64,000 nt of DNA, taken from assembly GCF_000027125.1 (NCBI RefSeq), contig NC_017626.1; one strand, written 5' to 3'. Origin of the DNA: Escherichia coli 042 (lineage in GTDB: Bacteria; Pseudomonadota; Gammaproteobacteria; Enterobacterales; Enterobacteriaceae). Under the pieces are notes generated by a model, which was not told the DNA's origin, searched no databases, and saw only the letters and a list, made by a program, of their open reading frames with translations. A program made the position numbers and the translations under genes. This document shows, in pieces, positions 5,831 through 7,004 of the stretch (the stretch's first letter is position 1; every line of letters starts with the position of its first letter).

Positions 5831-6044
5831 AGATAAAACTGTCGCAGCGGAAATTAGTGCATTAATGCTTGAGATTGGTGCGAAATTAGATAATTCCGTT
5901 TCAGTTGTTCAGATAAGTTGTGATGAATCTGAGTTTAATATTTATCGGGCCGCCGTTGGTGAAATTATGGGGCGCATGCTAATCGACATCATGAACCCCA
6001 TTTATAAACAGCATCCCGAACTTAAACAAAAAGAACTTAACTAA
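5823..6044 (+). CDS. Hypothetical small protein, islet gene D (73 aa from ATG 5823)
   Basis: AGGA at 5811-5814 with 8 nt spacer; stop is 3 bp from the convergent ybhN stop; the ORF-track start at 5766 has no RBS. Confidence 0.4.
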   Translation: MFKDKTVAAEISALMLEIGAKLDNSVSVVQISCDESEFNIYRAAVGEIMGRMLIDIMNPIYKQHPELKQKELN

Positions 6045-6047
6045 ACT

Positions 6048-7004
6048 TCACATCGCCGCTTCATTTTTCGCCCGCAGCTTCTTCGCCTGGCTTTCCAGTA
6101 ACAGGTAACAGATCAGCGCCAGCAGCAGTGGGATAAAGTAATACAGCACACGATAAGCGAGTAGGGCGGCGATAATTGTGCCTTTAGATGTATGCTCCCC
6201 TGCCAGTAGCGCGATAAACACCGCTTCCAGCACACCAATTCCCGCCGGAATATGCACGATGACACCAGCAATACTACTAACCAGCAACACGCCCAGTACA
6301 AAGAAATAGTTCACGCTTTGACCAAGTAACAGCCAGATTATCGCTCCCATTACCATCCAGTTAACGCTGGAAATCAGCATCTGGGCGAGGGCAAATTTCC
6401 ATGAGGGCAGCACCAGTTTTTGCCCTTTGATGGTCATATGGCGGTGCTTCGCGAAAGCGCAAAACCACAAATAAACCGCGATAATCATCAATAAGCCAAT
6501 GCCGAGAATACGCAGTGTAGTTTGATCGACATACCAGTGATCCGGCAACTCCACCACGCCTGCGGTAAAGATAATCCCCGCCAGTAAAATATAGCCCAGC
6601 CAGTTGGTGGTAATACTCAGCGAGAAAATCCGCGTGATAGTGCTGCCCGGTAACCCTAGCCGGGAGTACAAACGATAGCGCATACCAATGCCGCCGACCC
6701 AGGTACTGAGTGTCAGGTTGAAGGCGTAGCAGATAAACGACACCAGCATCACCTGGCGCTTCGCCAGTTTGTGACCGCAGTAGAAGCGGGCGAGCAGGTC
6801 ATAGCAGCCGTAAATCAGATAACTGACGACCACCAGCCCGACCGCACTAAGCAGCGCAACGCGATTGTAGTCGCGGATGACCTTCCAGACCTCTTCCCAG
6901 TCCACCTTTTTGGCGTAGACCACCAGCAACACAATCACCGCGATAAAAAACAGCCAGGTGAGGATCTTCTTTGCTAAGCGCCAGCGCGGGTGTGATTTAC
7001 TCAT
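6048..7004 (-). CDS. ybhN: Inner membrane protein YbhN (lysylphosphatidylglycerol-synthase-like TM domain)
   Basis: 318 aa multi-TM ORF; start overlaps clsB stop; ybhP-clsB-ybhN operon order. Confidence 0.92.
   Translation of the reverse strand: MSKSHPRWRLAKKILTWLFFIAVIVLLVVYAKKVDWEEVWKVIRDYNRVALLSAVGLVVVSYLIYGCYDLLARFYCGHKLAKRQVMLVSFICYAFNLTLSTWVGGIGMRYRLYSRLGLPGSTITRIFSLSITTNWLGYILLAGIIFTAGVVELPDHWYVDQTTLRILGIGLLMIIAVYLWFCAFAKHRHMTIKGQKLVLPSWKFALAQMLISSVNWMVMGAIIWLLLGQSVNYFFVLGVLLVSSIAGVIVHIPAGIGVLEAVFIALLAGEHTSKGTIIAALLAYRVLYYFIPLLLALICYLLLESQAKKLRAKNEAAM

Follow-up and report, generated by a model that had tools for sequence, protein, structure and literature searches.

The window that we analyzed is a stretch of 64,000 nucleotides from Escherichia coli 042 (contig NC_017626.1). 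It begins in the moa operon and carries ybhL at 2438-3142. An intrinsic terminator identified by consensus scan follows ybhL on the plus strand (3162..3182) and forms the left edge of an AT-rich island. GC content ranges from 26 to 42% across 3150-6044, compared to about 50 to 57% in the flanks, which are ~97.4% identical to K-12. The first island gene, ybhM (3349-4062), contains an in-frame TAA at codon 100 in the window. It is followed on the plus strand by a full-length DUF3969 gene of 125 aa (4121..4498; Pfam PF13108, E = 2.5e-16), an open reading frame for a hypothetical protein of 152 aa (4587..5045), a SUKH-4 family immunity-like gene of 199 aa (5105..5704; Pfam PF14435, 27.2 bits against a cut-off of 25.5) whose homologues bear the same name in RefSeq, and finally a short gene that we call gene D. 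The best promoter-like site, which matches the consensus at 10 of 12 positions and is identified by that match only, lies just ahead of the DUF3969 gene (4080..4107, plus strand) and is a possible start for an island transcript that would run to the junction of gene D with ybhN. Across E. coli we found at least five layouts of this island. Its content comprises ybhM and related Bax1-I paralogues, DUF3969, and gene D, to which the lineage of the window adds the 152-aa and SUKH-4 genes.

Gene D (5823..6044, plus strand) has an ATG start preceded, 9 nt upstream, by an AAGGA Shine-Dalgarno-like motif, and its 73 codons (5823-6041) end in a TAA stop at 6042-6044. Facing it on the minus strand is ybhN (6048..7004), the last gene of the ybhP-clsB-ybhN set, which encodes a 318-aa protein of the LPG_synthase_TM family with codons at 7004..6051 and a TGA stop at 6050..6048. 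The two stop codons are separated by three nucleotides, ACT (6045..6047). This spacing was the same in all 14 of the gene D loci that we read, while its letters varied (ACT, GCT, ATT, ACA, or AAA).

The product of gene D is a 73-aa orphan protein whose homologues are confined to Escherichia and Shigella. All 20 of the homologous clusters that carry a source name belong to one of these two genera, and every locus that we read was the ybhN-adjacent one. Searches of Pfam, NCBIfam, and PADLOC returned no match for the protein, and a comparison against PDB sequences gave nothing significant (best E = 0.005). With a median dN/dS of 0.27, gene D is under purifying selection. Its C terminus occurs as KELN, RELT, or KEVN, and its AlphaFold model is a two-helix hairpin (pLDDT of 90.7). 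We also considered a WXG100/Esx-type identity and rejected it, as matches to that type arose only at E above 1 and the fold is a generic one.

In a consensus scan of 3000-9200, the interval from 3696 to 6740 was free of terminator-like sites on both strands. Accordingly, the junction has no G+C-rich stem-loop followed by a U tract past either stop. Nor does it have a bidirectional terminator, in which one hairpin, with an A tract on one side and a T tract on the other, lies between the genes; the spacer here is only 3 nt. RNA past the gene D stop was less structured than its own shuffles (z = +1.46), and a search of Rfam families over 3000-7200 gave no match at E of 1 or better. An earlier sequence-only reading of this DNA had described gene D and ybhN as convergent, with 3 bp between their stops and no terminator hairpin between them, and both observations were borne out. 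It had also contrasted this junction with other convergent neighbors in the window, and here its account was accurate for the pairs that it named but selective. The ompX/opgE pair does have a hairpin, with A and T runs on either side (about 35402-35431), as does hcxB/ybiJ (21953-21974). Two further pairs in the window, on the other hand, overlap outright: ybhQ/ybhR by 39 bp (9136..9546 and 9508..10614) and rlmF/ybiO by 4 bp (26753..27679 and 27676..30036). In the K-12 equivalent of the window, overlapping pairs account for 2 of 9 convergent pairs; when the gene D/ybhN junction is included, 3 of 9 are too tightly spaced to hold an intergenic terminator, and the arrangement at gene D/ybhN is thus not unusual.

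We conclude that gene D/ybhN is an ordinary kind of terminator-less convergent junction. As at ybhQ/ybhR and rlmF/ybiO, the coding ends lie tail to tail, no space is left for an intergenic terminator, and each transcript must end within the coding sequence of its neighbor. The junction differs from those two pairs in that its open reading frames stop 3 nt short of overlapping and in that one partner is an AT-rich accessory gene missing from most strains. With the bidirectional hairpin terminators of the ompX/opgE type it shares a pair of convergent transcripts that need to be kept apart. Unlike at ompX/opgE, however, the spacer holds no hairpin, and the sole candidate lies inside gene D and is devoid of A and U tracts.

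This candidate, identified by folding, is a hairpin at 5969..5999, within the gene D coding sequence and 48 to 78 nt beyond the ybhN stop, and it qualifies as a weak terminator or pause candidate. It could serve the ybhP-clsB-ybhN transcript as a functional terminator or pause site, or else act as a bidirectional terminator of the collision type, in which case ybhN would have a 3' UTR of ~85 nt, antisense to the last 28 codons of gene D. The hairpin reaches about -15 kcal/mol on ybhN-sense RNA and is kept in 7 of the 7 intact-ybhN alleles that we folded, falling to -5.9 in the ybhN-deleted E. albertii. Hairpins that have no good U tract are, moreover, known to work at convergent pairs in E. 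coli (bioRxiv 10.1101/2022.10.23.513370). Against such a role, the tail AUAAUUUC is a poor U tract, with U at only 4 of the 8 positions that follow the stem, and falls short of what an intrinsic terminator calls for. The stem is also embedded in codons of an invariant peptide, and synonymous sites in the stem vary at 1 of 6 positions compared to 14 of 34 in the rest of the gene, a difference that is not significant (Fisher p = 0.25). Action on the plus strand would shorten gene D's own mRNA, and the hairpin is deleted in 98% of E. coli. We therefore consider a terminating role for this hairpin unlikely. Selection acting on the hairpin was a separate proposal that we set aside, given the same p value and the fact that its decay in E. 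albertii fits a long branch equally well.

The sequence-only reading had proposed that a recent insertion of genes A-D removed the 3' region of ybhN together with its terminator and thereby caused abnormal read-through. An AT-rich island that is absent from K-12, ending at a junction that has no terminator-like site, is what such an event would leave. Relative to ordinary E. coli, however, the comparison with K-12 contradicts it. K-12 lacks gene D, and its ybhN 3' end is identical to that of the window. The 35-bp spacer between ybhM and ybhN in K-12 ends in AAAGAACTTAACTAAACT, which corresponds to gene D's last five codons, stop, and 3-nt spacer; beside ybhN, K-12 thus retains an 18-nt relic in which the final 15 nt of gene D are followed by the spacer (6030..6047 in the window). 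The consensus scan found no terminator-like site at the K-12 ybhM/ybhN junction either. Given that K-12 has the same ybhN end, the relic, and no hairpin, nothing native to E. coli was displaced.

The distribution of the junction points the same way. Of 5426 complete E. coli genomes, 5341 (98%) carry the K-12-type junction as a contiguous sequence, and gene D is present in 34. The order of gene D, 3 nt, and ybhN nevertheless recurs in three other Escherichia species (E. fergusonii, E. whittamii, and E. albertii) and in a further Escherichia lineage (L008). In E. fergusonii, gene D carries a frameshift. In E. albertii the ybhN-clsB-ybhP set is internally deleted, and the decayed 3' end of ybhN begins 3 nt past gene D. 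The spacer was exactly 3 nt in all of the further E. coli alleles that we read. Alleles of gene D differ by up to 20%, which implies that the arrangement is old. In one E. coli genome (L014) the whole island is lost, 7 nt separate the ybhN stop from the hairpin of the ybhL terminator, and TGTTTA is all that remains of gene D.

These comparisons argue that the junction is old in Escherichia and not damage from a recent insertion, an account to which we attach almost no weight. The window would instead keep the ancestral state of the junction. The parsimonious reading of the commonest E. coli form is an island deletion that took DUF3969 and gene D and left the 18-nt relic, so that the spacer between ybhM and ybhN in K-12 would hold the fossil tail of a lost gene. 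The rare form that carries gene D would accordingly be ancestral for the genus rather than an insertion, a caution that the commonest or reference genome need not equal the ancestral state. As a separate observation, the K-12 spacer has a further 17 nt, on the left of the relic, that show only doubtful similarity to the post-ybhM region of the window.

The idea of a displaced ybhN 3' region fares better when the comparison is moved outside the genus. We read the region downstream of ybhN in 80 species-representative genomes, a set that does not include Salmonella, so the arrival of the island is only roughly timed. In 54 of the 74 non-Escherichia species with a full-length ybhN, this gene converges directly on ybhL. 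The spacer between the two has a median length of 59 bp in non-Escherichia species, and 48 of 51 such spacers reach a folding energy of -10 kcal/mol or better; four Buttiauxella or Cedecea genomes instead have a ybhN that overlaps ybhL by 4 bp. Citrobacter, Enterobacter, and Klebsiella all have ybhN converging on ybhL across a structured spacer, and their ybhN is mostly 2 codons longer. The YbhN C terminus reads NEKAMAK* in Citrobacter, Enterobacter, and Lelliottia, compared to NEAAM* in Escherichia, and all sequence 3' of the ATG-TGA that ends Escherichia ybhN is unrelated. An AT-rich island thus appears to have replaced the last two codons of ybhN and the hairpin-bearing spacer, and to have done so in a genus-level ancestor. 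A displaced ybhN 3' region is therefore supported relative to other genera, with their longer YbhN and structured ybhL-ybhN spacer, though not relative to E. coli.

The following sequence of events would account for these data. In the Escherichia lineage, an AT-rich island would have inserted between ybhL and ybhN such that its right edge met the ybhN stop, and this ancient event would have replaced the old two-codon tail and the hairpin-bearing spacer. Most E. coli, including K-12, would later have deleted DUF3969 and gene D, with the last 15 nt of gene D and the spacer staying in place. The island has the features of a horizontally acquired one, in that it is AT-rich relative to its flanks, varies among strains, and is absent from the 54 of 74 non-Escherichia species described above. 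The AT-rich cassette region would thus have changed rapidly while its right border stayed fixed at the 3' end of ybhN, from a time before the Escherichia species diverged.

Within the window, this region bears the marks of a composite. The ybhN 3' end (6046-6073) has a 28-nt duplicate at 5715..5742, to which it is identical at 26 of 28 nt; the core 18-mer of the repeat has a chance expectation of 0.13 matches. To the left of the copy is the end of the SUKH-4 gene, exactly as in strains EC42405 and GF4-3, which lack gene D and in which SUKH-4 lies directly against ybhN. To the right is the 3' end of a second DUF3969 allele (DUF3969a) followed by gene D, as in strain 88-3493. This 88-3493-type allele survives in the window as an orphan 3' fragment of its last 28 codons (5743..5830, plus strand), directly upstream of gene D. 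Together, the ybhN-end copy and the DUF3969 fragment form a chimeric open reading frame of 41 codons (5705..5830, plus strand), which starts at a TAAATG right after the SUKH-4 stop, overlaps the start of gene D (ATGTTTAA), and is called as a gene in one of the other loci (L011). The same composite is found in contigs that align collinearly with the window at 98.3% identity over 12 kb, and so it was inherited and is not an assembly artefact.

We take the 28-nt duplicate to mark the join between two cassette types: a block of DUF3969b, the 152-aa gene, and SUKH-4, ending in the ybhN-end copy, would have been joined to the DUF3969a fragment plus gene D. The likeliest origin for the composite, judged from its sequence, is a single illegitimate join together with a single homologous crossover in ybhN. 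By an alternative route, deletion between the repeats would convert the composite into the SUKH-4-type form, and this would fit equally well. Homology-facilitated illegitimate recombination proceeds through one homologous anchor and one illegitimate join. The composite resembles its products in that ybhN could serve as the homologous anchor, while the other join has no extended homology and carries a short duplication of the anchor end. It differs from that process in being deduced from sequence, and in that the reverse, repeat-to-repeat deletion accounts for it just as well.

We also weighed whether the two 28-nt repeats (5715-5742 and 6046-6073) might be attachment sites, with the fragment and gene D moving as a 303-bp cassette by site-specific recombination. 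Direct repeats do stand on either side of the unit, and both "empty" (EC42405 and GF4-3) and "occupied" (the window and L010-L012) forms exist. The unit starts in the middle of a gene fragment, however, and gene D homologues were found at the ybhN locus only. No integrase or recombinase gene is present in or near the island, and a single illegitimate join, or deletion between the repeats, explains both forms. Mobility of this kind is thus highly improbable. An element defined by duplicated att sites was likewise rejected as a class for this unit: the repeats are there, and a recombinase gene is absent from every layout that we read.

Given that no intrinsic terminator is present, transcripts arriving from both sides must enter the antisense strand of the neighboring gene. 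RNA downstream of both stops has the composition expected of Rho-dependent termination, namely, ~80 nt that are untranslated and poorly structured, with C well above G. Past gene D, a C-rich, G-poor, CA-rich, rut-like tract antisense to ybhN extends over 6175..6383 on the plus strand, at +130 to +340 after the gene D stop, with C/G ratios of 1.7 to 2.3. Past ybhN, a C-over-G, rut-like tract antisense to gene D and the fragment covers 5735..5995 on the minus strand, at +52 to +312 after the ybhN stop, with ratios of 1.75 to 3.6. With a 95th percentile of 1.80 for this ratio in the window, both tracts reach its top 5%. Antisense strands are generally C-over-G, however, and such a composition is no proof of a rut site. 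In the proposed mechanism, Rho would end both transcripts inside the neighboring gene on this C-rich, G-poor untranslated RNA. Silencing of the island by H-NS, which is likely because the island is AT-rich, would keep plus-strand input low, and polymerase collisions may contribute to ending (bioRxiv 10.1101/2022.10.23.513370).

Such read-through into the antisense strand, which the sequence-only reading had predicted, is plausible and agrees with northern blots from K-12. In those blots (Nucleic Acids Res 2019, PMC6847712), an hns mutant showed an RNA of ~500 nt that is antisense to ybhN; its end lies at the Rho-dependent element iRAP#2751, and bicyclomycin lengthens it to ~1500 nt. K-12 ybhN is on record in the same paper as an "H-NS_as_region." The K-12 RNA concerns the same gene with the same 3' end, and the Rho/H-NS mechanism is the one that we propose here. 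The K-12 system differs from the window in that its strain is devoid of gene D and the cassette genes, and the text of the paper (PMC6847712) gives no start point for the RNA. For transcription biology, the junction carries small weight: it adds one more terminator-less pair, and the Rho/H-NS-limited antisense RNA of K-12 has already been published. Its value for annotation and evolution is modest.

Our preferred reading combines an anciently conserved island edge, a later deletion of the K-12 type, a composite in the window, and transcripts ended by Rho. We place its probability at roughly 0.7.

A functional reason for the missing terminator can also be envisaged. In an excludon-like scheme, the island operon and ybhP-clsB-ybhN would repress each other by overlapping convergent transcription, so that a de-silenced island would lower ybhN and clsB. 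In favor of such a scheme, the genus shows no variation in the length of the 3-nt spacer, nothing terminator-like interrupts the plus strand between the promoter-like site at 4080 and the junction, and RNA antisense to ybhN does arise in K-12 upon H-NS removal (PMC6847712). Rho, however, ends the K-12 antisense RNA after ~500 nt, which resembles noise suppression rather than regulation. Most E. coli have lost the island genes, with no consequence known, and, indels being rare, the spacer can stay at 3 nt without any selection. Mutual repression is thus very unlikely in our view. The same low standing applies to the idea that the junction was kept across the genus for the sake of coupling, whereby lifting H-NS would send antisense transcription into ybhN-clsB-ybhP, collision or RNA duplex formation would lower this phospholipid-remodelling operon, and the hairpin in gene D would set the collision point; we regard it as a far-fetched speculation.

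The gene content of the island invites one further comparison. Polymorphic-toxin loci, such as those with SUKH families and the CDI and Rhs systems, carry arrays of immunity genes along with displaced "orphan" modules. The island resembles such arrays in its small, variable, AT-rich tandem genes, one of which has a SUKH-4 domain, and it resembles orphan modules in that the displaced 3' fragment of an upstream gene is kept with its downstream partner. Unlike those loci, however, it has no toxin gene or domain: Pfam, NCBIfam, and PADLOC found none among the DUF3969, 152-aa, and gene D proteins. The immunity-domain assignment is itself marginal, the SUKH-4 score being barely above its cut-off, and DUF3969 and gene D have no assigned roles; a literature search found no papers on DUF3969. 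In EC42405 and 88-3493, finally, the ~700 unannotated bp between ybhL and DUF3969 hold only short remnants of the post-ybhL region and of a Bax1-I paralogue.

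The genes of the AT-rich island between ybhL and ybhN differ by 8 to 26% between E. coli strains, compared to only 2 to 4% for the flanking core genes. This comparison set window positions 4127 to 5675 against the homologous loci of EC42405 (L002) and GF4-3 (L097), and also included the gene D alleles. The excess of island over core divergence suggests either that old alleles have been maintained together or that the island has been exchanged between species within Escherichia.

The left part of the island is highly variable (loci L004 to L008 and L094 to L097), carrying one to three Bax1-I paralogues in tandem and, in some genomes, a sulfatase gene. 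In E. albertii and GF4-3, a gene encoding a membrane-protein-like product of ∼232 to 237 amino acids lies directly before DUF3969; no family match was found for it. Within the window, a TTA-to-TAA change at 3646 to 3648 places an in-frame nonsense mutation at codon 100 of ybhM, leaving two open reading frames (ORFs) of 108 and 129 amino acids. Because both K-12 and a closely related contig (L010) carry TTA at this codon, the ybhM pseudogene is specific to the window's genome.

Downstream, the SUKH-4 gene runs straight into the 41-codon chimeric ORF, its stop codon and the ORF's start codon together reading TAAATG, and the stop of this ORF in turn overlaps the start of gene D (ATGTTTAA). This arrangement (window 5702 to 5830) could possibly form a translational coupling chain running from SUKH-4 through the 41-codon ORF to gene D. 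The 41-amino-acid ORF is annotated as a gene in one metagenome (L011). In EC42405, the SUKH-4 gene is truncated by a REP/BIME-like palindromic element inserted in its 3′ end (L002, 5676 to 5830); the GF4-3 copy lacks this insertion but is frameshifted.

Insertion sequences break up the island in some E. coli strains: in RM9088, IS1 separates DUF3969 from gene D (L096, 2787 to 3484), and IS2 lies immediately 5′ of gene D in AHM8C212RI (L101, 1 to 110). The gene D/ybhN junction is intact in both strains. Among other Escherichia species, ybhN-clsB-ybhP is missing between gene D and ybhQ in all three E. albertii contigs read (L004 to L006); in L004, all that is left is the ybhP 5′ region and a degraded 3′ end of ybhN (6223 to 6420). 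An E. fergusonii locus (L007, 6001 to 6225) carries a frameshift in gene D that yields a 52-amino-acid product, and another E. fergusonii record (P0010) holds a full-length gene D.

In two further convergent pairs in the window, neither mentioned in the sequence-only reading, the tail-to-tail ends overlap, over 39 bp for ybhQ/ybhR (9508 to 9546) and 4 bp for rlmF/ybiO (27676 to 27679). In Buttiauxella and Cedecea (L023, L026, L032, and L034), the ybhN C terminus is longer and the ybhN and ybhL stops overlap by 4 bp, so that tight tail-to-tail ends at ybhN have arisen independently outside Escherichia.
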